Shown: positions 6,222 to 55,140, counted from the stretch's first letter. The stretch: DNA of 64,000 nt from Candidatus Aminicenantes bacterium (GCA_026393865.1 JAPKZI010000043.1:20519-84518), one strand, 5' to 3'. Numbers and translations are program-made. Notes: generated by a model from the letters alone, not told the origin.

Positions 6222-6296
6222 TCGTTCTGCTCCCCGTATTCCGTCTGTCTCTCCCGCCCTACCATCGGATGGACGGCCATCCAAAGGGTTCCGTCC

Positions 6297-6470: not shown

Positions 6471-6568
6471 TGAATACCCCCAGTTTTCATTGGATCAATT
6501 ATAAAACAAAATTGGGGTGGACGTAACTACTACTTGTAAGAAGAAGAATATCAACTGCAGAAAAAAAT

Positions 6569-6644: not shown

Positions 6645-6772
6645 GCGATCCGGATCAAATTACCATAAACCGACCAGGATTTCAATCTTCGGTCAACCTC
6701 GCTTGGCTGCCCGTTTTGACAAAATGGCGCCTCTATGCTATTTGTGTCCTTCCCTCAAGGAAAGGACCGACC

Positions 6773-10148: not shown

Positions 10149-10243
10149 GTCGCTCGGGTCAAACCTTCCCCACCCCCGGGAATATCCTTCTCGAAGTCCG
10201 TCATTCCATTCTTCGGACTGAAAGGGTCCGTCCCTTCCCTCCG

Positions 10244-10654
10244 TCAGGCTTTGCCGATCTTGACGATCTTCGTCTGGGTCAGCGGGACCAGGCCGCTCCG
10301 CCTGTTCTCGAACTCGTCCTCGCGTCCGGAGAAGAATTCCTTTTTGACGAATTCCAGCAGCTCGTTGACCTCCGCCTCGATCCGCTCCATCCTCTTCCGC
10401 ATGTTGAGGACGACATCGACGCCGGCCAGGTTCACACCCAGATCACGGACGAGGTTGAGGACGAGTTCCAGCTGTTTTAGGTCCTCGTCGGTGTACAGGC
10501 GGGTGTTCCCCTCGCTGCGGGACGGCCGGAGCAGGCCTTCCCGTTCATACAGCCGCAACGTCTGGGGATGGATGTTGTAGCGCCGGGAAACGCTGCTGAT
10601 ATGATAGGTGGTCCGAGTGTCCTTTTCCCCCGCGCCCGATGTCCGTTTTTTCAT
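10244..10654 (-). CDS. hspR: MerR-family heat-shock repressor HspR
   Basis: YHISSVSRRYNIHPQTLRLYEREGLLRPSRSEGNTRLYTDEDL...GVNLAG resembles actinobacterial HspR. It is the last gene behind dnaK-dnaJ. Confidence 0.85.
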   Translation of the reverse strand: MKKRTSGAGEKDTRTTYHISSVSRRYNIHPQTLRLYEREGLLRPSRSEGNTRLYTDEDLKQLELVLNLVRDLGVNLAGVDVVLNMRKRMERIEAEVNELLEFVKKEFFSGREDEFENRRSGLVPLTQTKIVKIGKA

Positions 10655-10664
10655 CTCCGTTCCC

Positions 10665-11771
10665 TCACATCCCCTCCCGGGGGTTTGCGCCGGAAACCTT
10701 TTCCAGCTCCTTCATCAGCTCCCGGACTCTCTGGTCGGCGAACGGAGGCGGAACGATGCTCACTTCGACGTACTCGGCGCCCCGGGCCCGGCCGCCCGGC
10801 AAGGGCACTCCCATCTCCCGGATCCTGAATTTCTGGCCCGATCTCGTTCCCGGAGGGATCTTGATCGTCGAATGGCCATCGAGCGTGGGGACGTCGATCT
10901 TGGCCCCGAGCGTCGCCTCGGGGACCGTGATGGGGAGCTTGATATGAATGTTCGAACCTTCCCGCTTGAACAACGGGTGGGGGGTGACTTCGATGGTGAT
11001 ATAGAGATCGCCCGGGGGACCGCCGTTGGGTCCGGCGTTGCCCTTGTCCGGGATGCGGACCTTGGAGCCGGAATCCATGCCGGCGGGGATGCGGACGTTG
11101 ATGAGCTCGGTCCGCTGAACCGCGCCGTGTCCCCGGCACTCGGCGCAATCTTCTCCCCGCAGGGAGCCTCTGCCTCCGCAGGTCGGGCACATCGTCGAAG
11201 CCTTCAAGAAGCCGCGCTGGATAAAGGCTCGGCCGCTGCCTCCGCAGGCGGAGCAAGCCTTAGCCCGGCCGCTCTGGACCGAGCCCGTCCCGCCGCAGGC
11301 GGCGCAGTTGGCCGCTCGGTTCAACTTGATCTTGGTCTGCAACCCGCGGATGGCATCCTCGAAACCGACGGTCATCGTGTAAATGAGATCTTCACCGCGT
11401 TCGGGACGGACCTGGGCCGCCTGCCCCGCTCCGGCTCCTCCAAACATGTTCTCGAAGAAGTCGCGGAACGAGGATGTCCCGGAATCGGAGAAATTGAATC
11501 CTTCGAACCCGGACGTATACGTCCCCTGCGGACCTCCGCCGGCCGGGGGCCTGTCGCCCGCGAAGCCGAATTGATCATACTGGCTCTTTTTCTTGGGATC
11601 GCTGAGGACGGCGTAGGCCTCCTGGATCTCCTTGAACTTGGCCTCGGACGACTTGTCCCCGGGATTGAGGTCGGGATGATACTTGCGGGCCAGCTTGCGA
11701 TAAGCTTTCTTGATCTCGGCGACCGCCGCTTTCCGCTCGACCCCGAGGACAACATAATAGTCTTTGTTCAT
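10665..11771 (-). CDS. dnaJ: Molecular chaperone DnaJ
   Basis: J domain (YHPDLNPGD), G/F region and four CxxCxGxG zinc motifs. Confidence 0.95.
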
Positions 11772-11826: not shown

Positions 11827-13755
11827 TCAATTTTTCTTGCCGTCGTCCACGACCTCGGCGTCGATGACCTCGCCTTCGTCGCTCCCGGACTTGTTCCCGC
11901 CCGGGCCCTTCGACTCCTGCGGCTCCGCGCCGCTCCCGGGCTGGGCCTGCTCCTGGGAAGCCTGCTGGTACATCATCTCGGTCAACTTGTGCGAAGCCCG
12001 GGTGAGGCTTTCCGTGGCTTGCTTGATCCGGTCGAGGTTTTCACTTTCGATGGCCTTCTTGGTGTTCTCGATCTCAGTCCGGACCTTCTCGGCCTCGGCC
12101 TCGGGGACCCGCTCCTTGTTTTCGCGAAGGAGTTTTTCCAGGCTATAGACGAGCTGGTCGGCCTGGTTCTTAGCGTCGATCATTTCCCGCCGCTTCTTGT
12201 CTTCGGCGGAGTGGGATTCGGCATCCTTGACCATGCGGTCGATCTCCTTTTGGTCGAGCCCGCTGTGGCCGGTGATCGTGATGGCCTGCTGTTTGCCGGT
12301 CCCTATGTCCTTGGCCGTGACATGGAGAATGCCGTTGGCGTCGATATCGAAGGTGACCTCGATTTTGGGCACGCCCCGGGGAGCCGGGGGAATGCCGTCG
12401 AGATGAAACCGCCCCAAGGTCCGGTTGGCACTGGCCATCTCCCGTTCGCCCTGGAGGACGTGGATCTCGACGCTCGGCTGGCTGTCCGACGCCGTCGAGA
12501 AGACCTCGGTCTTCTTAGTCGGGATGGTCGTGTTCCGGGCGATCATCTTGGTGAAGACGCTACCGAGGGTCTCGATGCCCAGGGTCAGCGGGGTCACGTC
12601 GAGAAGCAGGACGTCCTTGACGTCGCCGGACAGGACGGCGCCCTGGATGGCGGCGCCGACAGCGACGACCTCGTCCGGGTTGACGCCCTTGTGAGGCTCC
12701 TTGCCGAAAAGGTCCTTGACCAGCTGCTGGATGCGGGGCATGCGAGTCTGACCGCCGACGAGGATGGCCTCGTCGATATCGGAAGCCTTCATGTTGGCGT
12801 CGGCCAAGGCCTGCTTAACGGGGGCCACGGACCTTTGGATCAGATCTTCCACCAGCTGTTCGAGCTTGGCCCGGGTTATCTTCATCAGAAGGTGCTTCGG
12901 GCCGGAGGCGTCGGCGGTGACGAAGGGCAGGTTGATCTCGGTCTCCATCGTCGTCGACAGCTCGATCTTGGCCTTTTCCGCGGCCTCTTTGAGCCGCTGG
13001 ATGGCCATCTTGTCCTTGGACAGGTCGATCCCCGATTCCTTCTTGAACTCGGTCACGATCCAGTCCTGGACCCGCTGGTCGATATCGTCGCCGCCCAAGT
13101 GGGTATCGCCGTTGGTCGACTTGACCTCGACGACCCCCTCGCCCACCTCGAGGATGGAGATATCGAACGTGCCGCCGCCGAAGTCATAGACGGCGATGGT
13201 CTGGTCCTTTTTCTTGTCCATGCCGTAGGACAGGGCGGCCGCGGTCGGTTCATTGATGATGCGGACGACCTCCAATCCGGCGATCGTGCCGGCGTCCTTG
13301 GTCGCTTTCCGCTGGCTGTCGTTGAAATACGCGGGGACGGTGATGACCGCCTTTTCGACCTTTTCGCCGAGATAATCCTCAGCTGCCTTTTTCAGCTTCT
13401 GGAGGATGAGGGCGGAGATCTCCGGAGGAGAGAACTTCTTGCCCAGGGTCTCGACCCTGACGTCTCCGTTGGGAGCTTCAGCGACTTTGAAGGGGACCTG
13501 CTTGATCTCTTCCGGAACCTCCTGATATCGGCGTCCCATGAATCTTTTAATGGAATAGACGGTATTTTCCGGATTGGTGACTCTTTGACGTTTAGCTACC
13601 TGGCCGACCAAACGTTCGCCTTTGGCCGTGAAAGCGACAACGGAAGGTGTTGTCCGTCCGCCTTCCTCATTGGGTATGACTGTCGGATTGTCGCCTTCCA
13701 TGACGGCGACCACCGAATTTGTCGTTCCTAAATCGATTCCAATAATTTTTGCCAT
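11827..13755 (-). CDS. dnaK: Molecular chaperone DnaK (Hsp70)
   Basis: [21 protein letters not shown]..., full-length Hsp70, 642 aa. AGGAGG RBS. Confidence 0.98.
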
Positions 13756-13780
13756 AATTTCCTCCTATTTTAGTACGAAT

Positions 13781-13811
13781 ACAATATAAAATATTAGCAT
13801 ATTGTTGTCAA
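13781..13811 (-). promoter_or_regulatory. dnaK promoter TTGACA-N17-TATATT, overlapped by inverted repeat ACAATAT-N11-ATATTGT
   Basis: -35 at 13806-13811, -10 at 13783-13788, IR at 13781-13805. It sits inside a ~140-bp strikingly AT-rich tract (13756-13899) with TGTAAATA-like direct repeats. Confidence 0.6.
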
Positions 13812-13899
13812 GTTTTATTTACAATTTATATTACATTATATTTACATTATTTTTAATAAGATATAAAGAGATGATTTCTGCCAGGCCGATATTTCGTAA

Positions 13900-14553
13900 C
13901 TATCGGCTCGGCTGAAAGATCAGCGTACTATGTCCATCTAGGAACGACCAATAGATCGCTTGGGCGTCCTTTTCGCTGGGCATGACCAACTCTATTTCCG
14001 TGAAACTCTTTTTTCTCAGGGCGAACCAAAGAGTTTTTAGAGGCAGAATGGTATGCCAAGAAATGGTTTTTCCAACATTTAAAAGCGTCGGCCAAAAGCG
14101 CTTTGTCCTTGGTTTGACCGAGATGTGCACGTTTTGTCCGAAATGAAGGCTGAAGTGAACAGGCATATCCTTCAATTCTAGAACGCCCAGGTCGGACGAA
14201 TCCTTCTTTTCCTTGTCCGTCGTTTTTTGATCTTCCTTGCCGGGAGTTATGTTCGGCCGTTCCGGTTGCGACAAGGCGCTTTTCTTTTCCATCTTGAAGA
14301 CTTTAAGAGGGACGCTTTTTCCCCAGGAACGCGTCCTGGCGATGGTCCATTTTCGAAGGACCTGGCCTCTTGCCTTCAAGGAGACCGTTCGCTCCCCGAT
14401 ATCGATGATCATATACGTCCCGGGAATCTTGGCCAGGGAAAGCTCCGCCTCAAAAAACCGGTTCTTTTCGAAGAGATCAGCCCTCTCCTGGGCATAACCA
14501 GAAAGCACTCCGGCCACGACCAAGGTCAGGACGAGAGGCGAGCTTTTTTTCAT
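13900..14553 (-). CDS. Hypothetical secreted protein (no catalytic motif seen)
   Basis: 217 aa with a signal peptide (MKKSSPLVLTLVVAGVLSGYAQ). Visibly lower GC than its neighbours. Last gene of the L,D-transpeptidase cluster. Confidence 0.65.
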   Translation of the reverse strand: MKKSSPLVLTLVVAGVLSGYAQERADLFEKNRFFEAELSLAKIPGTYMIIDIGERTVSLKARGQVLRKWTIARTRSWGKSVPLKVFKMEKKSALSQPERPNITPGKEDQKTTDKEKKDSSDLGVLELKDMPVHFSLHFGQNVHISVKPRTKRFWPTLLNVGKTISWHTILPLKTLWFALRKKSFTEIELVMPSEKDAQAIYWSFLDGHSTLIFQPSR

Positions 14554-14563
14554 CTTTTCGGCG

Positions 14564-15211
14564 TCAATAGATATAGATCTTGGCTCCTATGGGAACCCAA
14601 TGGAAGACCTCTTCCAGATCCTTGTCTCCTACCCGGACGCAGCCATGGGTGACGTTACGTCCCAGCAATCTGGTATAAAGCGTCCCGTGAATGAAGAACC
14701 CGTCGCCGAATCCAAGAGCGTAAGCGCCGAGCGAATCGTTGTCGATGCGCTCGTTGAAATTGGCCGGCGGCTTCTCCCCTTCCTCGATGAACGCCCAGTC
14801 CGGCTTGATCCAGGTTGGATTGACGAGCTTGGACGTGACGCTGAATTCGCCGCGCGGCGTGTCGAAGATCCATTTCCGTTTTCCTCCCGTTTCCTCGAGG
14901 ATATCGCCCGAACCGCAGGACACGACAACCTCTTTCTGGACCTTTTCGCCGTTCATGACATAGAGCCGGTTCTCGGCCGTATCGACGACGATAAAGAGCC
15001 CTCTTGTGGCCAATGCTTTTAGCCGACCGGCCAAAGACGCGTTCTGCGATTGAAGCTCTTTCGGGCTTTTTATCGCGGCCGTTCGTCCGGTCTCTCCGGC
15101 CGGTTTCCGCGACCATCCGAAGATTTCGATCCCGTATCCGATCAATTCGCAACCGACCAGAAGTCCGGCAAGGACGATCAACGCCAAGGGCCAGCCTCTC
15201 ATCTTAGTCAT
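14564..15211 (-). CDS. L,D-transpeptidase (YkuD domain) lipoprotein
   Basis: Lipobox LLVGC. Catalytic signature FFIHGT...NVTHGCVRV. Confidence 0.85.
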   Translation of the reverse strand: MTKMRGWPLALIVLAGLLVGCELIGYGIEIFGWSRKPAGETGRTAAIKSPKELQSQNASLAGRLKALATRGLFIVVDTAENRLYVMNGEKVQKEVVVSCGSGDILEETGGKRKWIFDTPRGEFSVTSKLVNPTWIKPDWAFIEEGEKPPANFNERIDNDSLGAYALGFGDGFFIHGTLYTRLLGRNVTHGCVRVGDKDLEEVFHWVPIGAKIYIY

Positions 15212-38632: not shown

Positions 38633-39958
38633 ATGACGGACTTGAACGGCCTGATCGTTTTCGTTGAAACGTTCGGTTGCCAGATGAACGAAAGCGACTC
38701 GGAGCGGATCGCCGGTCTGCTCGTGGCGGCCGGGGCCCGCCTGACCGACCGGCCCGAGGACAGTCAGGTGACGATCGTCAATACCTGCGCCGTCCGGGGC
38801 AAATCCGAGGAGAAGCTGTTCTCCTACCTGGGCCGCCTGCGGTCCCTGAAAAAAAAGACCGGCCTGAGGATCGTCTTGGCGGGCTGTGTCGCCCAGCTCC
38901 ACCGGGACAGGATCCTGGACAGGAATCCGGAAGTGGACTTCATCCTCGGCCCGGACAATTACCACCTGCTGCCGGAGCTGCTGGAACGCCGTCTCGGCCG
39001 GCCAAGGGTCTTCACGGCCTGGTCCAAGGATTGGCGGGAGGATGAGCGCCGGCTGAGCCTCCGGCGAAGCCCGGTCTCCGCCTTCGTGACGGTCATGGAA
39101 GGATGCGACAATTTCTGCGCATACTGCATCGTCCCGTTCACGCGAGGCCGGGAGAAGTTCCGGCCGCTCCGGACCGTCCTCGACGAGGTCCGAATCCTGG
39201 CCGGCCAGGGTTACAAAGAGATCCAATTCCTCGGGCAGAACGTCAATTCCTACCGGGACCCGGACACCGGCGCCGTCTTTCCCGACCTCTTGAGGGCGGC
39301 GGATGAAATCGACGGCCTCGAATGGATTCGTTTCATCACTTCGCATCCCAAGAATTTCGGCCCCGAATTGGCCGAGGCCATGGCCCGCTCCCGGCACGTC
39401 TGCCGTCAGATCCATCTGCCCCTTCAATCCGGATCGTCGGCGGTTCTCGAGAGGATGAAAAGGAGTTATTCGCGGGAGGAGTATTTGGAGAAGACCCGGG
39501 TCCTCCGTTCGCTCCTGCCCGGGATCTGTCTGAGCACGGACATCATCGTCGGGTTCCCGGGCGAGACCGAGTCGGAGTTCTCGGAGACTTTGGGGGCCCT
39601 GGATGAGATCCGCTTCGCCAACATTTTCTCGTTCCGGTACTCGCCCCGTCCCCACACCTCCGCGGCCAAGCTGAAGGATGACGTCCCGTTCGGGGTCAAA
39701 CGCCGCCGGCTGATGGACGTCCAACAAGCCCAGAAAGCGATCCAGACCCGGATCCACGAAGGTTTCATCGGCCGGACGATCCGGGTTCTCTGTCAGGGGA
39801 AGAGCAAAAAAGATGGACGCGTTTTCTCCGGCCGGAGCGAGGGCTATCAGGTGGTCAATTTCCGATCGGAAGCCGATGTCATCGGACGCTTCGTCCAAGT
39901 CCGGATCACGTCCTGCGGGCCTTATAGTTTGCGCGGAGAGCTCGCCGAAAGTCCTTGA
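38633..39958 (+). CDS. miaB: tRNA-i6A37 methylthiotransferase MiaB
   Basis: FVETFGCQMNESDSE UPF0004 domain, radical-SAM CDNFCAYC, C-terminal TRAM. Start trimmed to the ATG at 38633 (the track ORF starts at 38285 and overlaps the previous gene). Confidence 0.93.
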   Translation: MTDLNGLIVFVETFGCQMNESDSERIAGLLVAAGARLTDRPEDSQVTIVNTCAVRGKSEEKLFSYLGRLRSLKKKTGLRIVLAGCVAQLHRDRILDRNPEVDFILGPDNYHLLPELLERRLGRPRVFTAWSKDWREDERRLSLRRSPVSAFVTVMEGCDNFCAYCIVPFTRGREKFRPLRTVLDEVRILAGQGYKEIQFLGQNVNSYRDPDTGAVFPDLLRAADEIDGLEWIRFITSHPKNFGPELAEAMARSRHVCRQIHLPLQSGSSAVLERMKRSYSREEYLEKTRVLRSLLPGICLSTDIIVGFPGETESEFSETLGALDEIRFANIFSFRYSPRPHTSAAKLKDDVPFGVKRRRLMDVQQAQKAIQTRIHEGFIGRTIRVLCQGKSKKDGRVFSGRSEGYQVVNFRSEADVIGRFVQVRITSCGPYSLRGELAESP

Positions 39959-40011
39959 TTCCGGAGAATTTCCAAATCGATAGAAAGACGGGCGCCCGCC
40001 TCATCCTCGTC

Positions 40012-40115
40012 GGTCAAGGGACGAGCCTTCGGCTCGCCACTCGCCCGTGGCTTTAATTCACGGGCGAGTACGGCGGAAGTGGACCCCCGGGTAAAGCCCG
40101 GGGCCCGGCCGCCGT
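40012..40115 (+). repeat. Three-hairpin repeat element, copy A (104 nt, intergenic)
   Basis: ~90% identical to 45449-45553. Stems CGAGC/GCTCG, CTCGCCCGTG/CACGGGCGAG (10 bp) and CCCCGGG/CCCGGGG (7 bp). Confidence 0.85.
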
Positions 40116-40182
40116 TGATATTCGCGCCTGTTTCCGTTATAATCAAGTGCTTTTAACGGAACCGGCAGGGAAAGCCGACGTC

Positions 40183-41229
40183 ATGAAGATCAATGTCTGG
40201 AACACCATTTTGCAGCTGAGCAAGGAGCGAGGCGTCGAGCCGTCCCTCATCATCAGCGCCATCCAGGAATCGCTCAAGGTCGCCGCCTCCAAATATTACA
40301 CGCGGAACGAGGACATCCACGTCGACTTCCGGCCGGAAAAAGGCGAGCTCCGGGTTTACGCGCTCAAGCGGGTGGTCGAACATCCCGCCTCCCCCGCCCG
40401 GGAGATCTCCCTGGAGGAGGCCCGGCAGATGAACCCCGCGGCGGCCGTCGACGACGCCGTCGAGACCGATCTCCCCTCCGACACGCTGGGCCGGATCGCC
40501 GCTCAGGCCGCCAAACAGGTGATCTTCCAGAAGGTCCGGGACGCGGAACAGGAAAAGATTTACGGCGAGTTCGCTTCGCGGCTGGGCGAGATCATCATGG
40601 GCGTCTATCGGCGCGAAGAAAACGACGCGATCATCCTCGAGGTCAACAAGACCGACGTCCTCTTCCCCTTCCGCGAAAAGCTTTTCAACGAGGACTTCAG
40701 GCGAGGCGACCAGATCCGGGCGGTGATCGTCCAGGTCAAAAAGGGCTATAAAGGCGCGGATCCGCAAGTCATCGTCTCCCGGACGAGCCCCAAGTTCCTG
40801 GAAAAGCTCCTCGAACTCGAGATCCCCGAGATCGCCAACGGCGCGATCGAGATCAAGGACATCGTCCGGCAGCCCGGCGAACGGGCCAAGGTGGCCGTGG
40901 CGACCCGGGAACGCGATGTCGACCCCGTCGGGGCCTGCATCGGCGTCAAGGGCGGCCGCATCCTGGCCGTCAGCAAGGAGCTGGCCGGAGAGAAGATCGA
41001 CATCATCATCTGGTCTCCCAATCCCCTGAGCTACGCCAAGGCCGCCCTCAGCCCGGCGCGCGTCGAGAACATGATCGTCCTCGACAATATCGAGAAGACG
41101 ATGCAGGCGATCGTGACCAGGGACCAGTTGTCCCTGGCCATCGGCAAGAAGGGGATCAACGTGAAGCTGGCTTCAAAGCTCGTCGGCTGGAGGATCGGGA
41201 TCCAACAGCCACCCCCTGAATCAACATAG
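40183..41229 (+). CDS. nusA: Transcription termination/antitermination factor NusA (no C-terminal AR repeats)
   Basis: [31 protein letters not shown]..., followed by S1 and two KH regions. The track ORF begins at the GTG at 40147. Confidence 0.93.
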
Positions 41230-41243
41230 AAAAGGAACGTCCA

Positions 41244-43043
41244 TTGACGGAAACTAAGATTATTAAAACGACCAAGACGACCAAGGACGGCCCTAAGGCC
41301 CGGCCGGTGATCCTTCTCCGTGAAGGGTCGACCGTGAAGGAGCTGGCGGCCAAGCTGAAGGCCCGGCCAAAGGATATCCTGGAGAAGCTGGCGGCGAAGG
41401 GTTTCAGCCTGAGCGTCAACGACGTCATCGACGAAGCGTTCGCCGCCAAGGTCGCGGCGACCCTCGGCATCGTGCTCGAGAGCGTTTCCGTCGAAAAGGA
41501 GATGCGGAAGCTCGCCGAGAGCAAGAAGGCGGACCTCGTGACGCGGCCCCCGGTCGTGACGATCATGGGCCATGTCGACCATGGCAAAACGACGCTGCTC
41601 GACGCCATCCGCTCCTCGAACCTCGTCGACAAGGAATCGGGCGGCATCACCCAGCACATCGGCGCCTACCAGGTCGTCCACAACAAACGGCCGATCACTT
41701 TCATCGACACGCCGGGCCACGAGGCGTTCACCCAGCTCCGCGCGCGCGGGGCGAAGGTCACCGACATCGTCGTCCTGGTCATCGCTGCCGACGAAGCGGT
41801 GATGCCCCAGACCAAGGAGGCCATCAGCCACGCCAAAGCCGCCGGAGTCCCGATGATCGTCGCCATCAATAAGATCGACAAGCCCGAGGCCAATCCGGAC
41901 AAAATCAAAAGGGAGCTGCAGAAGGAAAATGTTCTCGTCGAGGAATGGGGCGGCGACGTCATCAGCGTCGCGGTCTCGGCCAAAGACAAAAAGAACATCA
42001 AGGAGCTCCTGGAAATGATCCTGCTCCTGGCCGACGTCATCGAGATCAAGGCCAATCCCAAAGGGAAGGCGCAGGGGTTCGTCCTCGAGGCACGCCTCGA
42101 CGCGAAGAAGGGCCCTCTTGCGACCGTGATCATCCAGAATGGAACGTTGTCCGTGGGCCAAGCCTTCCTGTCAGGGACGACTTTCGGCAAGGTCCGCGCG
42201 CTCAACGACGAACACGGCCGCGGGCTGAAAGCCGCTGGACCTTCGACCCCCGTCGAGATCCTCGGATTCTCCGGGGTGCCTCAGGCGGGCGATTTCTTCC
42301 TCGTGCTCGACAGCCAAGAGGAAGCCAGGGCCGTCGCCGAATATCGTCTCTCCCGCGCGTCGAAGGGCGCCGCCCAAAAACCTGGACAGGTCACGCTTGA
42401 CGACCTTTTTAAGAAGATCGAAGCGGGAGAATCCAAGGAGCTGCCCATCATCCTCAAGGCCGACGTCCAAGGCTCGGTCGAGGTCTTGACCGGGCTTCTT
42501 CCCTCCCTCGGCACGGAGAAAGTGAAAATCAGGATCATCCAGGCCATGACCGGATCGATCACGGAGTCGGACATCCTCCTCGCCTCGACCTCGAAGGCCA
42601 TCATCCTCGGCTATAACGTCAAGCCCGGTCCCAAGATCCAAGATCTGGCTCAGAAGGAGAACGTCCAGGTCCTGTCCTACAAGATCATCTACCAGCTGAC
42701 GGACGACATTAAAAAGGCCGTGGCGGGTATGCTTGAACCCGTCATCAAAGAGACCTACCTGGGCCGCGCCCAGGTCCGCAAGATCTTCAGGATCCCCAAG
42801 GTCGGCGTCATCGCCGGAAGTTATGTCCAGGACGGCAAAATCGTGCGCAACGCGGAGGTCAAAGTCCTCCGGAATAAGGAGGTCGTCTTCAAGGGCCGGA
42901 TCGCCTCGTTGAAGCACCTGAAGGAGAACGTGACCGAGGTCAAAAAGGACCTGGAATGCGGCATCGGACTGGACCGGTTCAAGGAGTTCCAAGAAGGCGA
43001 CCTGATCGAGGCTTTCATCACCGAAAAGGTCTATCAGTCCTAG
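41244..43043 (+). CDS. infB: Translation initiation factor IF-2 (short N-terminus, apparent TTG start)
   Basis: [20 protein letters not shown] and NKID GTPase motifs. 599 aa. Confidence 0.95.
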
Positions 43044-43058
43044 CCGGGGACGGGGACC

Positions 43059-43340
43059 ATGGTCATCGGCTATCTCGAACTGGACCTTCATTTCCCTCAC
43101 GCCCGGTCCCTCAAGGACAAACGCAAGGAACTCAACGGGCTCAAGGATCGCATCCGCCGGAAACACAACGTCGCCCTGGCCGAGCTTGACTTTCAGGACG
43201 TCTGGCAGCGGACGAAGATCGGCGTAGTGACTCTCAACAGCCACCAGACCATCGTCGAGCAGGTCCTGTCTCGGATCCGGTCCGACGTTTTCGAGAATGT
43301 CAACGGCGAACTTCTGAGCTCCCGGATCGAGTATTATTAG
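43059..43340 (+). CDS. DUF503 (YlxP-like) protein
   Basis: MVIGYLELDLHFPHARSLKDKR... Same position as B. subtilis ylxP, between infB and rbfA. Confidence 0.8.
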   Translation: MVIGYLELDLHFPHARSLKDKRKELNGLKDRIRRKHNVALAELDFQDVWQRTKIGVVTLNSHQTIVEQVLSRIRSDVFENVNGELLSSRIEYY

Positions 43341-43345
43341 GGTCC

Positions 43346-43708
43346 ATGAAAGACGAGAGCCGGCGACAGAAGAAAATCGGCAGCCTGCTTCTTGAGGCGC
43401 TCAGCCCGATCCTCATCCAGGAGCTTCTCGGCGTAACGACCGTCCTCGTGACCGTGACGCGCGTGGACGTTCCCGCCGACCTCAAAACCGCTCATGTTTT
43501 TCTCAGCGTCTTCGGCCCCGGCGATCCCGCCCCGATCTTCGCTCATCTCGAACGGAGGACGGGGTTCATCCGCAAGCGTCTTGCCTCCACGGTCAAACTA
43601 AAGTATAATCCCATGCTATTTTTCAGCCTGGATCCGACCGCGGACATGAGCGAACGGATCGACCGGCTTCTTCGGACGACCAGGACCGATGGACACGACG
43701 CCTCTTGA
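43346..43708 (+). CDS. rbfA: Ribosome-binding factor A
   Basis: 120 aa, KKIGSLLLEALSPIL...VTVTRVDVPADLKTAHVF. Confidence 0.88.
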   Translation: MKDESRRQKKIGSLLLEALSPILIQELLGVTTVLVTVTRVDVPADLKTAHVFLSVFGPGDPAPIFAHLERRTGFIRKRLASTVKLKYNPMLFFSLDPTADMSERIDRLLRTTRTDGHDAS

Positions 43709-44678
43709 CCTCATCGTCAAAAAAATCTCCGCCAGCCGCCGCTTGGCCATCACCAGTCACCTCCGGCCCGACGGCGATTCTTTGTGCACCAGCCTGGCCC
43801 TGTCCTTCGCCGCCGAGGCCATGGGCAAAGAGGCGGACATCTTCAACACGGACCGAACGCCCGTCCCGTTCCAGGCCTTTCCCGATGCCGCCAGAATCCG
43901 GATCGGACAGATCCCGCCAGGGATCTACGACGCGGTCATCCTTCTCGAATGCGCCGACGTCTCCAGGTCCGGCCACGAGCACCTCGACCGCTATTTCAAG
44001 ATCAATATCGATCATCACTATTCGAACGACCGCTATGCCGACATCAACTGGGTCGATCCGGCGGCTTCGGCCGTCGCGGAGATGGCCTTTGACCTTTGCC
44101 AAAAGCTGCCGCTGCGCCTGACCCCGCGGATCGCCGGCCACCTGTACTGCGCGATCGTATCGGACACGGGCTCCTTCCAGTTCTCGAACACGACGGCCAA
44201 GTGTTTCGCGGTCTGCCACGCCCTTGTCGAAGCCGGCGCGGAGCCCAACCGGACGAGCGAAGCCCTTTTCCATAATAACCCTCCCGAAAAAATCAAGCTC
44301 CTGGGACGGGTCCTGTCCACCCTCGAACTCAGCCGGGACGGCGCCATCGCCATGATCCATTTGTTCAAAAAGGACCTCCGGAGCTTGAACCTGCGCGAGA
44401 TCGACACGGAAGACATCACCACGCTGACCCGTTCGATCAAGGGCGTGAACGTCGTCCTTTTCTTCAAGGAGATGGACCCTGACGTCTTCCGCGTCAGCAT
44501 CCGATCCAAGGGGACCGCCCACGCCGCGGCGATCGCCGAGCATTTCGGCGGGGGCGGTCACGCCCATGCCGCGGGATTCACGGTCTACGGCCCGTTCGAG
44601 GAGCTGATCAAAGGCGTGCCCGCGACCGTCGAGAAACTCCTCGGCGAGATGGCCCCCGGGCGCGCGACCACGACGTGA
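43689..44678 (+). CDS. nrnA: DHH/DHHA1 phosphoesterase (NrnA-like)
   Basis: HLRPDGDSL, NIDHHYSN and GGGHAHAAG motifs. Confidence 0.85.
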   Translation: MDTTPLDLIVKKISASRRLAITSHLRPDGDSLCTSLALSFAAEAMGKEADIFNTDRTPVPFQAFPDAARIRIGQIPPGIYDAVILLECADVSRSGHEHLDRYFKINIDHHYSNDRYADINWVDPAASAVAEMAFDLCQKLPLRLTPRIAGHLYCAIVSDTGSFQFSNTTAKCFAVCHALVEAGAEPNRTSEALFHNNPPEKIKLLGRVLSTLELSRDGAIAMIHLFKKDLRSLNLREIDTEDITTLTRSIKGVNVVLFFKEMDPDVFRVSIRSKGTAHAAAIAEHFGGGGHAHAAGFTVYGPFEELIKGVPATVEKLLGEMAPGRATTT

Positions 44679-44681
44679 TGA

Positions 44682-45698
44682 ATGGACGGTCTGATCCTCG
44701 TCCGCAAACCCGTTCCCGCGACTTCCCATGATGTCGTTGCGGCGCTTCGGAAGATCCTGAATCAAAAAAAGATCGGCCACTTCGGGACCCTGGATCCGCT
44801 GGCCTCCGGCCTTCTCCTTGCCGCCGTCGGAAAGGCCACGCGGCTGTTCCCCTTCTACAGCAAAATGGACAAGATCTACGAAGGCCGTATCCGCCTGGGC
44901 TTTTCGACCGATACGTTCGATGCCGCCGGCCATCCCACCTCTCCGGCCTGCGATATTTTTCCCGACCGCCCCGCGGTCGAGGAAGTCCTTCGGGATTTCG
45001 AGGGAGAGATCACCCAGATCCCACCTCCCTATTCGGCGAAAAAGGTCGGGGGAATACCCCTTTATACCTACGCCCGCCGGAAAACGCCTGTCGACGGTCG
45101 TCCGTTCCAGGTGCGGGTCCACTCCTTCGAACTCCTGGGGTACGTCGCCCCGCATATCGATTTCGTGGTGAAGTGCGGCTCGGGAACCTATATCCGGACC
45201 CTGGCCCATGACCTCGGCCAAAGGCTGGGATGCGGAGCCCACCTTGCAGGGCTCGTCCGGACCGGGATCGGCGAATTCAGCCTGAAGGACGGTCTGACGT
45301 TGGAGGAGATCCGGGGTTTTCAGGAGATGGGCGCGACCGGGAGATTCCTTCTACCCATGGAATCGCTCCTGCCTTCTTTGGCCATGATCAAAGTCAGCGA
45401 AGAAGGCGTTCAATGGATCCGGAACGGCCGACCGGTCTCGGCCGAACAGGTCAAGGGACGAGCCTTCGGCTCGCCACTCGCCCGTGACTTCTATCCACGG
45501 GCGAGTACGGCGGAAGCTGACCCCCGGGCTATGCCCGGGGCCCCGGCCGCCGTCGAGGACGCCGAGGGGAACGGGCCTCCGGTCCTCCGCGATGATCCGA
45601 CGATCATCGTCCGGGTCTTCAGCCCGGACGGCCGGCTGATCGCCCTGGCCCGCCCCGCCGCTTTTCCCGGCCATTTCGCGCCTTTCCTCGTCCTTTAA
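44682..45698 (+). CDS. truB: tRNA pseudouridine(55) synthase TruB carrying a 35-codon repeat-derived insertion
   Basis: GLILVRKPVPATSHDVV...GHFGTLDPLASGLL catalytic Asp motif. 338 aa. Confidence 0.92.
   Translation: MDGLILVRKPVPATSHDVVAALRKILNQKKIGHFGTLDPLASGLLLAAVGKATRLFPFYSKMDKIYEGRIRLGFSTDTFDAAGHPTSPACDIFPDRPAVEEVLRDFEGEITQIPPPYSAKKVGGIPLYTYARRKTPVDGRPFQVRVHSFELLGYVAPHIDFVVKCGSGTYIRTLAHDLGQRLGCGAHLAGLVRTGIGEFSLKDGLTLEEIRGFQEMGATGRFLLPMESLLPSLAMIKVSEEGVQWIRNGRPVSAEQVKGRAFGSPLARDFYPRASTAEADPRAMPGAPAAVEDAEGNGPPVLRDDPTIIVRVFSPDGRLIALARPAAFPGHFAPFLVL
45449..45553 (+). repeat. Three-hairpin repeat element, copy B (105 nt, in frame inside truB)
   Basis: Same three stems as copy A. Encodes VKGRAFGSPLARDFYPRASTAEADPRAMPGAPAAV. 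Confidence 0.85.
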
Positions 45699-50269: not shown

Positions 50270-51421
50270 CTATTTTTTGATCGGGCCGATCACCTCGTGG
50301 GCGATCACGAGCCGCTGGACCTCGTTCGTCCCCTCATAGATCTGGAGGAGCTTGGCGTCTCGCATCAACTTCTCCATGGGATAATCCCGCATATATCCGT
50401 AGCCGCCGAAGATCTGGAGAGCTTCCGTCGTCACCCGCATGGCGATGTCCGTGGCGTAGGCTTTGGCCATGGCCGATTCCTTTCCGCAGGGCAGGCCTTG
50501 GTCGGACAGCCAGGCGGCGTGCCAGACGAGGTGACGCGCGGCCGCGATCTCCGTGGCCATGTCAGCGATCTTAGCCTGGATCAGCTGGAAAAGGGCGATG
50601 GGCTTGCCGAACTGGGTCCGCGTCTTGGCATAGTTGACGGCATGTTCGAGGGCTATTTTGGCGATGCCGACGGCCGCGGCCCCGACCGAAGAGCGGGTTT
50701 GATCGAACGTCTTCATGGCGATAATGAACCCCATGCGTTCCTTTCCCAGCAGATTCTCCACCGGGACCCGGCAGTCCTCGAAAAAGATCTCGGCCGTATT
50801 GGACGCCCGGTGGCCCATTTTGTCCTCGACCTTGCCGATCGTCAGACCGGGCGTTCCGCGCGGGATGATAAAGGCGCTCATGCCCCTCGCCCCTTTCTCG
50901 GGAGAGGTCTTAGCGAACACGACATAGAGGCTGGCGACCCCGGCGTTGGTGATAAAGCATTTTGAACCGTTGAGGACGTAATCGCTCCCGTCTTTGATCG
51001 CTTTCGTCTTGATCGAACCCGCGTCGGACCCGGATTCGCGCTCGGTGAGGCAATAGGAGGCCAGCCCCATGGTCCGGCAGATAGGAGCCAGGAACTTTTT
51101 TTTCTGCTCATCCGATCCATAAAGGACGACGGGCGTCGTCGCCAGGGATACGGCCATGATGCTGGTGAACATGCCCGGGCAGCCGGCGGACAGCTCCTCG
51201 CTGATGAGGGCCATCTCGAAGCTGGTTGCGCCGCCGCCGCCGTAGGATTCGGGGATGTTGCAGGTCATGAATCCGGCGTCGAAGGCTTTCTGCATGATCG
51301 CCTCGGGAAATTCGTGGCCCTGATCGTATTTGGCTGCGTTCGGCGCCATCTCCTTCCGGGCGAACTCCCGGGCCATCTCCTGCAGCGCCGTCTGCTCTTC
51401 GGTCAGTCTATAGTCGATCAT
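50270..51421 (-). CDS. Acyl-CoA dehydrogenase
   Basis: 383 aa, CLTERESGSDAG...YEGTNEVQRLVIA, typical ACAD motifs. Confidence 0.92.
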   Translation of the reverse strand: MIDYRLTEEQTALQEMAREFARKEMAPNAAKYDQGHEFPEAIMQKAFDAGFMTCNIPESYGGGGATSFEMALISEELSAGCPGMFTSIMAVSLATTPVVLYGSDEQKKKFLAPICRTMGLASYCLTERESGSDAGSIKTKAIKDGSDYVLNGSKCFITNAGVASLYVVFAKTSPEKGARGMSAFIIPRGTPGLTIGKVEDKMGHRASNTAEIFFEDCRVPVENLLGKERMGFIIAMKTFDQTRSSVGAAAVGIAKIALEHAVNYAKTRTQFGKPIALFQLIQAKIADMATEIAAARHLVWHAAWLSDQGLPCGKESAMAKAYATDIAMRVTTEALQIFGGYGYMRDYPMEKLMRDAKLLQIYEGTNEVQRLVIAHEVIGPIKK

Positions 51422-51518
51422 AGAGACTCCTTACTTTCATAATCCTTCTCTGCGATGTCAAAAGAATGGCCTACCTTATACAGAATTCCCCCCGTCCTGT
51501 CAATTGAAGGGCCCGTCT

Positions 51519-54056
51519 TCACTTGAAGTATATCTTTTCCCGGGTCATCAGGTAGACGGCCCGCTGCAGGCCGAGGGCCCGCTCGACGACATCCTGGGGC
51601 CGAAGGGACCGTTGCGGGGAGTAGGCGATCTTCAAGACAATCTTGCGGCCGGGCTCATCGACGAAGATCTCTTGAAGCAGGTCGGGCTTGGCCGGCCGAT
51701 ATTCGTCAATAAGGCGGGCCGCGATTTTCTCCGTTACCCCCTCAGGATCGCCCTCCCCTTTCCTGACGGCCAGTCCCTCTCGCGCCTCGGCGGCGCCGAG
51801 ATCGAGCGAATAGACCATCGACGAGATCCGTTCCGTCAACGAACGTTCAGCAGGGGCGATCTTCTTCAGCCCGGAAAAAAGGATGCCGTCCGGCGCACAG
51901 CGGTCAAGGGCCGCCATGAAGCTTTGCTCGTCCAGGTCATCGGTGGATTTGAATTCAAAAGATTCGTCGTTCCCGGTCATTCCCAACGGAAGGGCCGGGG
52001 CCAGGGACATCTGCATCTTCGGATGAAATCCTTTGGTAAAGAGGGCGTTTACCCCCGCCCGTTTGAACGTCCGTTGGAGGATATTGAGAAGATCGTTATG
52101 GGAAACGAATCGGGCCTGCCCGCGCTTCCCATAAAAGGCCTGATAGCGGAAGACCGTTTCCGTCCGGCGTCCCAGGTCCGGACCGGGACGATCGCCGACC
52201 TCGATCTTCGCTTTGAATTCCCTGTCGATGTCGGCCATGAAATCGCAGCCGCGGCACAGGCCGCAGGAGGTCTCCAAACAGGACGGCGAGCGTTCGGCCT
52301 TCAGCGCTTTCTCCAGCTCGGCGAGAAGAAAGCTCTTGTGGACGCCCGTCTCGATGTGGTCCCAGGGGAGAGCGGCGCTCCGCTCCAATGCCCCGAGGTA
52401 CGTTTGGGGATCGACGCCGGTCTCGTCGAAAGCCCTCAGCCAAAGAGGCAATTGGAAATGGTCCCCCCAGCTGTCGAACCGCGCCCCGCGGTTCCAAGCC
52501 GCGCGCAGGACGGCGGACAGACGTCGGTCACCGCGTGAAAAAACGGCTTCGAGGAGGGAATTCTCGACGGGATGGTCCTTGATCTGGACATGGCGTTTTT
52601 TCTTCAAAAGGCGCTTGAGATAGACCTGTTTCTCGCGGAGAGCCTCCTCCCCATCCATCGCCGCCCACTGGAAGGGGGTATGGGGTTTCGGGATGAACGA
52701 GGAGACGCTCATGTTGATCCGCGGCGGCGAAGTCATGATCTCCCGGCCGAGCGCCGTCAGATCGTCGATCAAGGCCGCGATCCCGCGAAGGTCCTCTTCC
52801 CGTTCCGTGGGAAGGCCGATCATGAAATAGAGCTTCAACAGCTTCCAGCCTTCGCGGAACGCGTTCGCCGCGGCGTCCCAAATGTCCTGATCCTTCAGGT
52901 CCTTGTTGATGACGCTGCGCAGTCGTTCGGAGCCCGCCTCGGGGACGAGGGTGAACCCCGTCTTCCGGACTTTGATGATATCGCGGATGATCTCCGCCGA
53001 AAGACCTTGAGGCCGCAAAGAGGAAAGCGACAGCGAGACATGGTCCTTTTCCAGACTGTTCATCAGCGTCCGTATGGTCTCCCCGAGGTACGGATAATCG
53101 CTCACGGAGAGCGAGAACAGCGAGGCATCCTCATAGCCCGTCGCCCGGAGGCTCTCGAAGAGGCGGTCCACGACATAGGACGGATCCTTGATCCGGTAGG
53201 GAGCATAGAGGCTGGTCGCCTGGCAGAACCGGCATTTATGGGGGCAGCCGCGCGCGACTTCGACGGCGACCCGGTCGAAAACGGCCCGGATATTGGGGAC
53301 GATGATGTCGGCAGGAAAAAAAGAACGGCTGAAGTCGCGAAGGACGCGCTTGCGGATCAAGGCCGGCGCGCCGGCCCTCGGCCTGACCGTCAGGAGAGAA
53401 CCGCCGTCCGGGCAAAAGGCTTCATAGAAGCTCGGGACATAGACGCCGGGGATGCGGGCGAGCTCCATCAGGATGTCTTTCCGGGACGCCGCCCCACCCT
53501 TCATGTCCTCGTATTTCCCGATAATTTCCGGAACGGCCTCTTCCCCGTCGCCGAGGAGGAACAGATCGAAGAAGTCGGCCACCGGCTCCGGATTGAACGC
53601 GGCCGGGCCGCCGGCGATCACCAAGGGATGCCGGAGGTCCCTCTCGTCCGCGCGCAGCGGGATCCCGCCCAGGTCGAGGATCGTCAGGATATTGGAATAA
53701 TTCAGCTCATACAACAGCGAGAACCCGATGATATCGAATTCGGCTAGAGGGATCTTGTTCTCGAGAGACCGGAGCGGGGAGCCGCGTTCCCGGAGTTCCC
53801 TCTCGAAGTCCGGCCAGGGCGCGAAAACACGTTCGGCCAGGGCGGACGGAAGGGCGTTGATCAAGGCATAGAGGATCTTCTGGCCGAGATAGGACATGCC
53901 GATCTCGTACACGTCGGGGAAGGCCAGGGCAACTTTGACTTTGGCGCGCGCCGGGTCCTTGCGGACCTCGTTCCATTCCCCTCCGGTGTACCGGCCGGGC
54001 TTTTCGACCGCCGGCAGGATCCCGTCCAAGATTCCCCTCGTCGGTCCATCAGACAT
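51519..54056 (-). CDS. B12-binding-domain radical SAM protein fused to a DUF2344-like C-terminal domain (TIGR03960/TIGR03936-like by recollection)
   Basis: CPHKCRFC radical-SAM motif. N-terminal VEKPGRYTGGEWN. C-terminal FVSHNDLLNILQRTFKRAG. 845 aa. Overlaps the rodA stop by 8 nt. Confidence 0.88.
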   Translation of the reverse strand: MSDGPTRGILDGILPAVEKPGRYTGGEWNEVRKDPARAKVKVALAFPDVYEIGMSYLGQKILYALINALPSALAERVFAPWPDFERELRERGSPLRSLENKIPLAEFDIIGFSLLYELNYSNILTILDLGGIPLRADERDLRHPLVIAGGPAAFNPEPVADFFDLFLLGDGEEAVPEIIGKYEDMKGGAASRKDILMELARIPGVYVPSFYEAFCPDGGSLLTVRPRAGAPALIRKRVLRDFSRSFFPADIIVPNIRAVFDRVAVEVARGCPHKCRFCQATSLYAPYRIKDPSYVVDRLFESLRATGYEDASLFSLSVSDYPYLGETIRTLMNSLEKDHVSLSLSSLRPQGLSAEIIRDIIKVRKTGFTLVPEAGSERLRSVINKDLKDQDIWDAAANAFREGWKLLKLYFMIGLPTEREEDLRGIAALIDDLTALGREIMTSPPRINMSVSSFIPKPHTPFQWAAMDGEEALREKQVYLKRLLKKKRHVQIKDHPVENSLLEAVFSRGDRRLSAVLRAAWNRGARFDSWGDHFQLPLWLRAFDETGVDPQTYLGALERSAALPWDHIETGVHKSFLLAELEKALKAERSPSCLETSCGLCRGCDFMADIDREFKAKIEVGDRPGPDLGRRTETVFRYQAFYGKRGQARFVSHNDLLNILQRTFKRAGVNALFTKGFHPKMQMSLAPALPLGMTGNDESFEFKSTDDLDEQSFMAALDRCAPDGILFSGLKKIAPAERSLTERISSMVYSLDLGAAEAREGLAVRKGEGDPEGVTEKIAARLIDEYRPAKPDLLQEIFVDEPGRKIVLKIAYSPQRSLRPQDVVERALGLQRAVYLMTREKIYFK

Positions 54057-55140
54057 TGACGAATCTTCTCATCTTGACGTTGACGACGAGTCCCACGGCA
54101 ATGAAAGTTGTCAGGAGCGACGACCCTCCATAGCTGAGCATCGGGATAGGAACGCCGGTGATCGGGAACAGGCCGACGATCATCATGACATTGATCAGGA
54201 ACTGGAAGCTCAGCAGGCAAGCCGTCATGAAGACGATGTACATGCCGGCCCGGTCCCGGGATTTGCCGACGGACCGGAATATCCTGGCTAGGAAGAAGAA
54301 ATAGCTCAGGAAGACGAAGAAGACTCCGACGAAACCGAACTCCTCACCCAGCACTGAAAAGATGAAGTCCGTATGGCGCGCCGGAAGGAACCGCAGCTGG
54401 CTCTGCGAGCCTTTCTTGAACCCCTTTCCCGCCAGTCCTCCCGATCCGATGGCGATCTTCGATTGAAGGACGTGATAACCCGAACCGCGCGGGTCCTGGC
54501 CGGGATTCATCAGCGTCGTAAGCCGTTGTTTCTGGTAGTCCTTCAAAAAATAGTTCCATCCGGCGAAGCCGGCGAGGAACGTGATGATGAGAAGGAGGGC
54601 CAGCATCTTTCGGTTCATGCCCGCGAGGACCAGGCTCGCCAACAGCAGGGGCAGAAAGCTGATGGCCGTGCCCAGGTCCGGTTGGAGGGCGACCACCGCC
54701 ATGGGAGCGAAGACGACCGCTCCGCTGAGGAGGCCGAACTCGAGGCTTACGTAGGTCCGCCGGAATTCCGCAAAGATCCTGGCCAGGACAAGCAGGACCA
54801 CGACCTTGGCCAGCTCGGAAGGTTGCCCGCCGAAAACCGCCAGTCGGATCCAGCTCTTGGCCCCGGAGATCACCCGCCCGAAGACGAGCAGGCCGATGAG
54901 AAGGAGGATGAACAGGACATAAATATAGGGAGAAAATCCGACGAGGATCTTGTAATCGATCGACAACACCAGAAACAGGGCGCCCAGGCTGATGACCAGC
55001 CAGATCGCCTGTCTGAGGTAAAAATTCCCGGCCTGATATTGCGACGAGCTGTAGATCAGGAGGATGCCGATGACCGAGTTCACGAGCAGGAGCCCGATGA
55101 GGACCCAGTCAATTTCGCGGAGCTGGACTCTGTCGATCAT
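54049..55140 (-). CDS. rodA: Rod shape-determining protein RodA (SEDS family)
   Basis: Polytopic FtsW/RodA/SpoVE family member, ...LPARHTDFIFSVLGEEFGF. Start trimmed to 55140 (MIDRVQL...). Confidence 0.9.
   Translation of the reverse strand: MIDRVQLREIDWVLIGLLLVNSVIGILLIYSSSQYQAGNFYLRQAIWLVISLGALFLVLSIDYKILVGFSPYIYVLFILLLIGLLVFGRVISGAKSWIRLAVFGGQPSELAKVVVLLVLARIFAEFRRTYVSLEFGLLSGAVVFAPMAVVALQPDLGTAISFLPLLLASLVLAGMNRKMLALLLIITFLAGFAGWNYFLKDYQKQRLTTLMNPGQDPRGSGYHVLQSKIAIGSGGLAGKGFKKGSQSQLRFLPARHTDFIFSVLGEEFGFVGVFFVFLSYFFFLARIFRSVGKSRDRAGMYIVFMTACLLSFQFLINVMMIVGLFPITGVPIPMLSYGGSSLLTTFIAVGLVVNVKMRRFVNV

Follow-up and report, generated by a model that had tools for sequence, protein, structure and literature searches.

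The stretch of DNA studied here is a 64,000-nt segment of a Candidatus Aminicenantes genome (JAPKZI010000043.1:20519-84518, hereafter the window), and it contains two copies of a palindromic repeat, both lying in an operon with the gene order miaB-nusA-infB-DUF503-rbfA-DHH(nrnA-like)-truB (38633-45698 in the window, 4053-10918 in the syntenic contig L113). Copy A occupies the spacer between miaB and nusA, and copy B sits inside truB. A first-pass annotation, made from the sequence alone, had described a structured repeat of the REP, MITE or RPE kind (repetitive extragenic palindromes, miniature inverted-repeat transposable elements and Rickettsia palindromic elements, respectively), a description supported by the copies found in related bacteria, by the fold, by the conservation of the stems and by compensatory changes. 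Both copies belong to a mobile palindromic repeat that has many copies in Aminicenantes bacteria and had not been named before; it is a new family of a kind already known. We consider it very likely that the repeat is a non-autonomous mobile DNA element of about 102 bp, akin to REP, PATE and RPE repeats.

Two copies with exact ends

The copies are direct repeats (40012-40106 and 45449-45543) that a repeat finder run over the 64-kb window places at 91% ungapped identity, and the 30-mer GACGAGCCTTCGGCTCGCCACTCGCCCGTG occurs exactly twice in this length of DNA where 0.00 occurrences are expected. No third copy is present in the window, also when it is searched with the model of a subfamily. In the pairwise alignment the first 38 nt are the same in both copies, as had been noticed before; identity sets in abruptly at GGTCAAGG and fades past ...GCCGCCGT(T/C)GA. 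A recount of the differences gives the same tally as the first-pass annotation, 9 substitutions and 1 indel. These had all been assigned to loops and linkers with none in a stem, which holds for the stem cores, where there are none, though some of the changes occupy helix closing or edge columns (38/46, 69, 80, 92) rather than loops or linkers.

The exact extent of the element comes from syntenic contigs reached through homologues of TruB. Two of these, L113 and L114, encode TruB proteins about 95% identical to that of the window and lack both copies. At miaB-nusA, the window and L115 have filled sites and L113 and L114 empty ones; at truB, the sites of the window and L116 are filled and those of L113 and L115 empty. 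With the insertion point marked ^, the alignment at the boundary of the first site reads CGTTG^GTTGATATT when empty and CGTCG[GTCAAGG...GCCGCC]GTTGATATT when filled, or, read further outwards, ...CATCCTCGTTG^GTTGATATTCG... against ...CGT(C/T)G[GTCAAGG...GCCGCC]GTTGATATTCG..., and that of the second site reads ...GAACAG^ATCGCGGAC... when empty and ...GAACAG[GTCAAGG...GCCGCC]GTCGAGGAC... when filled. A third pair is provided by L085 (filled) and L123 (empty, TATCCAC^ATGGCC on the other strand), where the boundary is unambiguous and no base is duplicated. The fourth comparison, made over a greater distance, concerns the 5' end of a glutamine amidotransferase (GATase) gene, where L026 has the element standing before GT(T/C)GCC and the window, L113 and L116 have an empty site. 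None of the four comparisons, three of them at strain or species level and one distant, contains a target-site duplication, and the sharp ends without duplication that were first reported from the two copies thus hold against natural empty sites.

Defined in this way, the family consensus is 102 nt long, copy A being one C short in a CCCC run, and the five bases that follow each copy (GTTGA and GTCGA) belong to the target and lie outside the element. The conserved stretch opens with (G)TCAAGG and closes with GCCGCC. On the 5' side the flank is random. On the 3' side a logo of 33 copies gives G (32/33), T (26/33), any base, G (31/33) and A or G (29/33), that is, GTNGR directly 3' of the element, or equally an element directly 3' of YCNAC on the other strand. 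The motif is common, occurring about 975 times per 64 kb or about once per 66 bp. The dinucleotides at the two ends are unlike each other in 14 of the 33 copies, which makes the recurring GT a matter of preference; that it is a 2-bp target duplication was rejected for this reason and because of the unambiguous L085/L123 boundary. Terminal inverted repeats are likewise absent from the consensus, in which the 5' end GTCAAGGGACGAGCC is unrelated to the reverse complement of the 3' end GGCGGCCGGGGCCCC. The element is therefore gained and lost with base-exact precision next to a one-sided flanking motif, with hairpins near both ends, no terminal inverted repeats and no duplication. The coordinates of both copies and of the features around them are collected in Table 1.

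Table 1. Positions of the repeat copies, their parts and the adjoining features in the window (MFE, minimum free energy structure; ORF, open reading frame)
Feature	Position	Strand	Basis and remarks
miaB, radical-SAM tRNA methylthiotransferase, upstream of copy A	38633..39958	+	ORF list; syntenic L113 gene 441 aa with UPF0004, Radical_SAM and TRAM
Copy A, repeat element	40013..40113	+	101 nt, intergenic miaB/nusA; boundaries from filled/empty alignment with L113, L114 (empty) and L115 (filled); nhmmer E = 9e-31
Copy A hairpin 1	40019..40038	+	GG.CGAGCC / GGCTCGCC, TTC loop; MFE; 96.8% of cells paired, 32 copies
Copy A hairpin 2	40039..40069	+	ACTCGCCCGTG(G) / (C)CACGGGCGAGT, variable A/T-rich loop; MFE and 32-copy alignment
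Copy A outer helix ACGGCGG/CCGCCGT with hairpin 3	40070..40115	+	hairpin 3 CCCCGGG/CCCGGGG at 40085-40103; MFE and 32-copy alignment
Target motif GTTGA, directly 3' of copy A	40114..40118	+	single in the empty site, not duplicated
Predicted sigma70-like promoter TTGATA-17 nt-TATAAT upstream of nusA	40115..40143	+	11/12 consensus matches; sequence unchanged at the L113 and L114 empty sites
nusA, downstream of copy A	40183..41229	+	ORF list; syntenic L113 gene 348 aa with NusA_N and KH domains
truB, tRNA pseudouridine-55 synthase	44682..45698	+	338 aa owing to the insert; homologues carry PF01509 and PF16198
Copy B, repeat element	45450..45551	+	102 nt = 34 codons, in frame in truB; filled/empty DNA alignment with L113 and L115
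Target motif GTCGA, directly 3' of copy B	45552..45556	+	filled/empty alignment and flank logo

Copies across Aminicenantes and inside genes

Scanning species-representative genomes for the central hairpin, CTCGCCCGTG-N(5-13)-CACGGGCGAG, returned at least 112 loci, many of which are chance G+C-rich palindromes in unrelated phyla. Searches with the whole element (blastn and nhmmer) identified at least 33 full-length copies with an identity of 87-97% to copies A and B, together with about 20 partial or composite ones. Such a search for further copies had been proposed along with the original description, which held that the pair was more than a recent duplication, and the relatives bear this out. 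The copies are spread over 13 metagenome-assembled genomes (MAGs), of which nine are labelled Candidatus Aminicenantes, Aminicenantales or Aminicenantia, one Acidobacteria and three “uncultured Eubacteriales”; JAUYDS01 has at least nine contigs with copies and JBEKTZ01 has seven. The three “uncultured Eubacteriales” assemblies that carry the element are CAZZCH01, CAZLAM01 and CAZGJS01 (L012, L016, L026, L032, L071, L072 and L096). Since L026 is syntenic with positions 50276-54864 of the window at 58-65% amino-acid identity, its label is probably wrong. Collections of plasmids, phages and viral contigs gave no match to the element, and we found no published description of such repeats in Aminicenantes. 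Overall there are at least 50 copies or fragments, about two thirds of them intergenic and often less than 100 bp from a gene end, as judged with a crude GC1/GC2/GC3 gene caller that recovers the known genes of the window. For Aminicenantes (formerly OP8), a sediment lineage that is widespread and uncultured, this defines a repeat family at the level of sequence, with its consensus, exact ends, flanking motif, modules and subfamilies.

The family is modular. Its simple form has the modules A-B-C, namely hairpin 1, hairpin 2, and hairpin 3 within an outer helix. In a short form the sequence between two CGGC repeats, with hairpin 2 and half of hairpin 1, is missing. JAUYDS01 and JALHUR01 have several copies of a composite of about 170 nt, A-B1-C1'-B2-C2, and tandem B-C arrays are also seen, for instance in L067. 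Partial copies in L028 and L098 were considered as the ends of a full-length insertion sequence (IS), and this was rejected as they are the short variant without hairpin 2; a 983-aa ORF contains one of these in frame. In L115 the copy between miaB and nusA (1922-2064) has an additional segment of 37 nt, TTTGCCGTCCTCATTCGCTCTGCGAATATGGACTGAA, in its hairpin-3 loop, and truncated copies in L003 and L046 are followed by similar ...CATTCGCTTCGCGAAT tails; the segment and the tails may represent a further module or a nested second element.

Copy B provides the best defined case of an insertion into a gene. The first-pass annotation had observed that the element is stop-free in the truB frame, which holds, and copy B in fact lies inside the truB ORF and is translated as VKGRAFGSPLARDFYPRASTAEADPRAMPGAPAA, 34 extra residues that form residues 257-290 of TruB. 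The nearest TruB orthologues, 92-95% identical, have 304-305 aa and lack the segment, compared to 338 aa for the protein of the window, and among 77 aligned homologues an insert at this position is found only in the window protein and in P0007. The AlphaFold model of the protein has a mean pLDDT of 86 and a pTM of 0.81, and its sole low-confidence stretch, residues 265-300, covers most of the insert and the adjoining native variable loop, which places the insert in a surface loop of the C-terminal domain. The model thus predicts a disordered surface loop that would be tolerated there. Copy B exemplifies, outside Rickettsia, the in-frame entry of a palindromic element into a conserved gene.

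Other genic copies also occur in frame, in either orientation and in unrelated host genes whose identities were confirmed by Pfam. An antisense copy interrupts the domain of a PIN_2 toxin, and in a TPM-domain protein the insertion lies downstream of the signal peptide. Glycosidases of GH127 and GH38 are also hosts, as is a GATase in which codon 9 precedes the copy. At the 3' end of an ECF sigma factor gene the ORF has come to continue through a copy. The reading frames of the element account for much of this pattern. Four of the six frames of the consensus are stop-free. All six sense-oriented genic copies are read in the frame GTC-AAG-GGA..., giving VKGRAFGSPLARGLYPRASTAEVDPRAKPGAPAA, because the target GTN-GRN stands mostly in codon phase 0; in the coding sequence of the window, 230 of 337 GTNGR occurrences begin at codon position 1. 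Antisense insertions that take the commonest phase bring a stop codon of the A/T-rich hairpin-2 loop into frame, and this fits the surviving antisense genic copies, which are in another frame or are of the short form without hairpin 2. L028 contains two in-frame antisense copies, a full one in the PIN_2 gene (5052-5570, -) and a short one without hairpin 2 in a gene for a 983-aa secreted protein (1048-3996, -). In L073 a 101-nt antisense copy (2515-2619, -) shifts the frame of an rfbB-like dTDP-glucose dehydratase gene (2072-2746, +), the Pfam match of which ends at residue 149 while the STDEVYG motif goes on in another frame, so the gene is either a pseudogene or the product of a homopolymer assembly error.

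A peptide search for host proteins bearing the insert recovered only small ORFs called on the element, and gives no estimate of the diversity of hosts. The proteins P0121-P0131 (NCBI locus tags Q8O91_*, JGI) are of this type, “hypothetical proteins” of 42-70 aa annotated on the element itself, and are almost certainly spurious. As gene callers both annotate the element in this manner and extend or interrupt real genes because of it, recognising the family would clean the annotation of MAGs and explain contig breaks.

Hairpins and their constraint

The minimum free energy structures of copies A and B contain all three stems originally described, and in addition an outer helix, ACGGCGG/CCGCCGT, that encloses hairpin 3 and whose final paired bases, GT (40114-40115 for copy A), come from the target and not from the element. 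The folds have energies of -67.0 kcal/mol for copy A and -63.7 kcal/mol for copy B (z = -5.6 and -5.0), and when compared with shuffled controls, as had been suggested, none of 200 shuffles folds as well. In an alignment of 32 copies, 95.9% of the cells in the helices are paired, against about 40% in controls in which the structure is slid along the alignment.

It had been proposed that the loops vary and the stems do not. The loop of hairpin 2 is the most variable part of the family, with 6.3 non-consensus sequences per column, and the arms of the same hairpin are invariant by construction in the 32-copy set, as the scan used to collect it demanded exact arms. When the columns of these arms are left out, unpaired columns have 3.5 non-consensus sequences per column and paired columns 1.46, a 2.4-fold difference (Mann-Whitney p = 2.6e-5). 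The proposal therefore stands in the form that stems are less variable than loops, while the fixed arms of hairpin 2 reflect the scan. Covariation, a further check suggested at the time, is not significant among the 32 near-identical copies, where there are 3 double changes and 56 of 500 shuffles reach that number; a signal appears once more divergent subfamilies join. A second subfamily of hairpins 2-3, collected through its neighbours only and hence outside the search bias on hairpin 2, has compensatory changes in hairpin 2 (G-C to A-T and T-A to C-G) and in hairpin 3 (G-C to A-T). With the subfamilies added, 7 pairs are changed on both sides and the covariation score is 0.216, compared to 0.130 for shuffles (0 of 500 reach it) and 0.02-0.10 for slid controls. 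The compensatory changes amount to few independent events, yet they agree with selection keeping the hairpins, and the case for structural constraint rests on the variability of the columns together with the more divergent subfamilies.

Which strand might fold can be judged from the mismatches in the helices. G·T and A·C mismatches are equally frequent (16 and 20 in one alignment, 10 and 13 in the other), and no single strand is thereby marked as the folded one. These counts fit better with a DNA palindrome than with a strand-specific RNA, which would favour one of the two types.

Mobility, alternatives and related systems

Transposases of the HUH type offer the closest mechanistic parallel. 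IS200/IS605 elements have asymmetric ends with subterminal hairpins, a one-sided target of 4-5 nt, no duplication and seamless excision, and in the “peel and paste” transposition of HUH Y1 enzymes, which uses the subterminal hairpins, the element is excised precisely and its left end is placed 3' of a tetra- or pentanucleotide that is specific to it (PMC5027513, PMC3201880). The Aminicenantes repeat resembles these elements and the PATEs in its asymmetric hairpin ends, its one-sided motif of 4-5 nt and the absence of duplication. Subterminal hairpins are found at both of its ends, with hairpin 1 lying 6-9 nt from one end and hairpin 3 with the outer helix reaching the other, and ends without inverted repeats, no duplication, a one-sided motif and hairpins together fit HUH single-strand transposition. 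It differs from the IS200/IS605 elements and PATEs in that no tnpA parent with these ends was found, neither an orientation bias nor guide-target pairing was detected, and YCNAC is degenerate. Y1_Tnp genes are present in these bacteria (PF01797, E = 2.6e-7 in L085; 545 relatives in metagenomes).

By analogy with these systems, a site-specific enzyme acting in trans would recognise the folded hairpins and insert and excise the element seamlessly, the best candidate being an HUH/Y1 single-strand transposase of the IS200/IS605-TnpA or RAYT kind. If the element is mobile, we regard it as an even matter whether the enzyme is of HUH type. The active strand would then be the complement of the plus strand of the window, YCNAC^GGCGGCC...(hairpin 3)...(hairpin 1)...CCCTTGAC^, with hairpin 3 as the putative left end beside the target YCNAC and hairpin 1 as the putative right end closing in ...CCCTTGAC, and precise excision would produce a circle junction of ...CCGGCCGCC^GTCAAGGGAC... 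Copies would persist where harm is slight, as may be the case for copy A, just upstream of the -35 box of nusA, and for copy B in a loop of TruB.

Several observations weigh against mobility by such an enzyme, or against mobility as the whole explanation. In about 1.2 Mb of sequence examined, neither a demonstrated mobilising enzyme nor a full-length parent with these ends was found. A tblastn search with approximate IS200, IS608 and E. coli RAYT queries located a Y1_Tnp gene (PF01797) that directly abuts a copy in L085, and this gene was rejected as a demonstrated mobiliser for want of consistent linkage, the element being found at only 2 of 80 loci homologous to the gene and missing from the other 78. 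Y1_Tnp genes are instead preceded by another palindrome, CGGGGACATGTACCG/CGGTACGTGTCCCCG (GGGGACATGTAC..), at L117 1599-1631 and in L118, L119 and L120, which is probably the REP family of those genes themselves and is absent from the window. The copies are oriented without bias with respect to the genes around them (21 of 39 loci, p = 0.75; the direction of replication is not known for MAG contigs) and so give no support for coupling to the lagging strand; GC skew as a measure of orientation is confounded by coding-strand composition and gives no usable bias. Mutual information between the flank and internal “guide” positions revealed no covariation (smallest p = 0.01 in 152 tests, which is lost on correction for multiple testing). 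The 87-97% identity between copies of different species could reflect host function instead of recent mobility. Finally, another lineage also has an insert at each of the two sites of the window, positioned at the identical nucleotide, in the form of a different subfamily or a rearranged copy: the miaB-nusA site of L115 contains A-B2-C2 with the extra 37-nt segment, and the truB site of L116 (codon 256/257) contains A'-C1-B2-C2. The versions of the element share about 80% identity, compared to about 96% for the flanks (counted from the miaB-nusA alignment), and the closer relatives of each filled lineage have clean empty sites.

With GTNGR as frequent as it is, chance reuse of one site is unlikely and simple random insertion does not suffice. 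Either the targeting is far more specific than the visible motif, or old insertions were precisely excised and remodelled. A first alternative follows from this, namely that the family is a distinct class of seamless, target-directed hairpin element that does not derive from a known IS family, which we think improbable. Were it true, it would imply either an unrecognised homing-like targeting or ancient insertions subject to frequent enzyme-driven precise excision and turnover of copies, and in both cases conserved proteins of an uncultured phylum would repeatedly acquire 34-residue peptides from the element.

A second alternative, that the repeat is a REP-like element domesticated by the host and kept for a function such as protection of mRNA 3' ends, punctuation of operons or binding of nucleoid or topoisomerase proteins, with mobility accounting only for its arrival, is distinctly less probable. 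The similarity between copies of different species contrasts with TruB proteins of related Aminicenantes that are 46-95% identical to that of the window, most copies are intergenic and near gene ends, and the stems are conserved, all of which such a function would explain. Against it, presence differs between near-identical strains at both sites of the window, copies are found in frame within coding sequences and upstream of promoters, and hairpins 2 and 3 are not intrinsic terminators as no U-tract follows them, the sole terminator-like match being a 5-bp sub-stem. The need to be recognised by a transposase would moreover conserve the family just as well. We found no evidence of a dedicated function of copy A or copy B at its own locus.

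Two further routes of mobility have very little probability. A classical MITE, a deletion derivative of an IS with a DDE transposase that moves by cut-and-paste on terminal inverted repeats, would likewise be small, non-coding, multi-copy and structured, and in-frame MITE insertions are known (PMC10969869), but the unrelated ends of this element and the lack of a target-site duplication in all four filled/empty comparisons speak against it. A cassette-like element moved on folded single strands by a tyrosine recombinase (integron attC-like or Xer-like), with the crossover in a shared GT, is about equally doubtful. It would account for GT at both junctions in most copies, for the single GT in the empty sites of copies A and B, and for the A-C of the outer helix that pairs with the flanking G-T. 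However, the 5' end in L085 is TT with a boundary placed unambiguously by the empty site, the two end dinucleotides differ as often as described above, the attC R''/R' boxes (RYYYAAC/GTTRRRY, compared at the level of the consensus) do not fit, and no integrase gene was seen near any copy.

The remaining alternative concerns copy A, which the first-pass annotation had described as occupying the slot of rimP and as a possible leader of nusA or independent small RNA. In L113 and L114 the miaB-nusA spacer is 123 bp and contains neither the element nor rimP, and rimP is absent upstream of nusA in all related contigs compared; nor did a crude tblastn with an approximate E. coli query, combined with a search for the SSPG motif, match RimP anywhere in the 64 kb of the window. 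The absence of rimP is therefore a feature of the lineage unrelated to the element. The predicted nusA promoter begins inside the target motif directly 3' of copy A and is native, not borne by the element, which places the element just upstream of the -35 box, where it would lie outside transcripts started there. The promoter call consists of the sigma70 consensus match by itself, the promoters of this phylum being uncharacterised. Copy A is thus neither a nusA leader RNA nor a stand-in for rimP. That a cis-acting structured RNA (a leader or attenuator of nusA-infB) or an independent small RNA compensates for the missing rimP is scarcely credible, since, for all the strongly non-random fold, the site upstream of nusA and the lack of an Rfam match that makes an undescribed RNA conceivable (nothing at gathering thresholds, the best permissive matches scoring 23.9 bits where the cut-off is 79 and 18.5 bits where it is 70), the element is dispensed with by strains of about 95% TruB identity that also lack rimP, stands upstream of the predicted promoter, recurs within ORFs, truB among them, and in either orientation with respect to genes, and has G·T and A·C mismatches that favour neither strand.

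A non-autonomous mobile palindrome, the reading that we prefer, finds its closest analogue in behaviour in the RPEs, in its ends and insertion signature in REP/RAYT systems and IS200/IS605 derivatives, and in its modular build in the BOX elements. The pneumococcal BOX elements are intergenic and consist of modules boxA-boxB(n)-boxC that form stable hairpins and vary in number. To our knowledge they have no known transposase and no defined flanking motif. The Aminicenantes repeat is likewise modular and built from hairpins, and differs in sequence and host. Large BOX elements with ORFs have also been mentioned (PMC10969869).

RPEs are about 100-150 bp long, are present in many copies, often lie in frame in unrelated genes where they encode a conserved peptide at sites tolerated by the fold, and have no known transposase (PMC10969869). 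Compared by description, the Aminicenantes repeat is also palindromic and in frame in unrelated genes (TruB, PIN_2, TPM, GATase, ECF sigma, GH127). It differs from RPEs in its host (Aminicenantes instead of Alphaproteobacteria), in being mostly intergenic, and in its documented GTNGR flank, base-exact empty sites and modular short and composite forms; the hosts being unrelated, sequence homology between the two is not expected. REPs are G+C-rich imperfect palindromes of high copy number, mostly extragenic and without terminal inverted repeats or target-site duplications, and their movement is attributed to a domesticated Y1 HUH enzyme with an affinity for the hairpin (PMC2817692, PMC8266576). 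The repeat described here is similarly a multi-copy, mostly extragenic palindrome without terminal inverted repeats or duplications, in bacteria that have Y1_Tnp genes. Whereas a typical REP is a single palindrome of 20-40 nt with a conserved 5' tetranucleotide that flanks its RAYT gene, the Aminicenantes unit is a fixed three-hairpin sequence of 102 nt that also enters coding sequences and does not flank the Y1_Tnp homologues (L117-L196). Its exact filled and empty natural alleles provide a tractable system for studying seamless insertion without duplication, and the tolerance or use of inserts by proteins.

A separate insertion, absent from the corresponding place in the window and in L116, is found in L113 at 13040-15015 (-), where an IS4-like DDE_Tnp_1 transposase gene and a DUF6788 gene lie between an epimerase gene and a PKD-domain gene.

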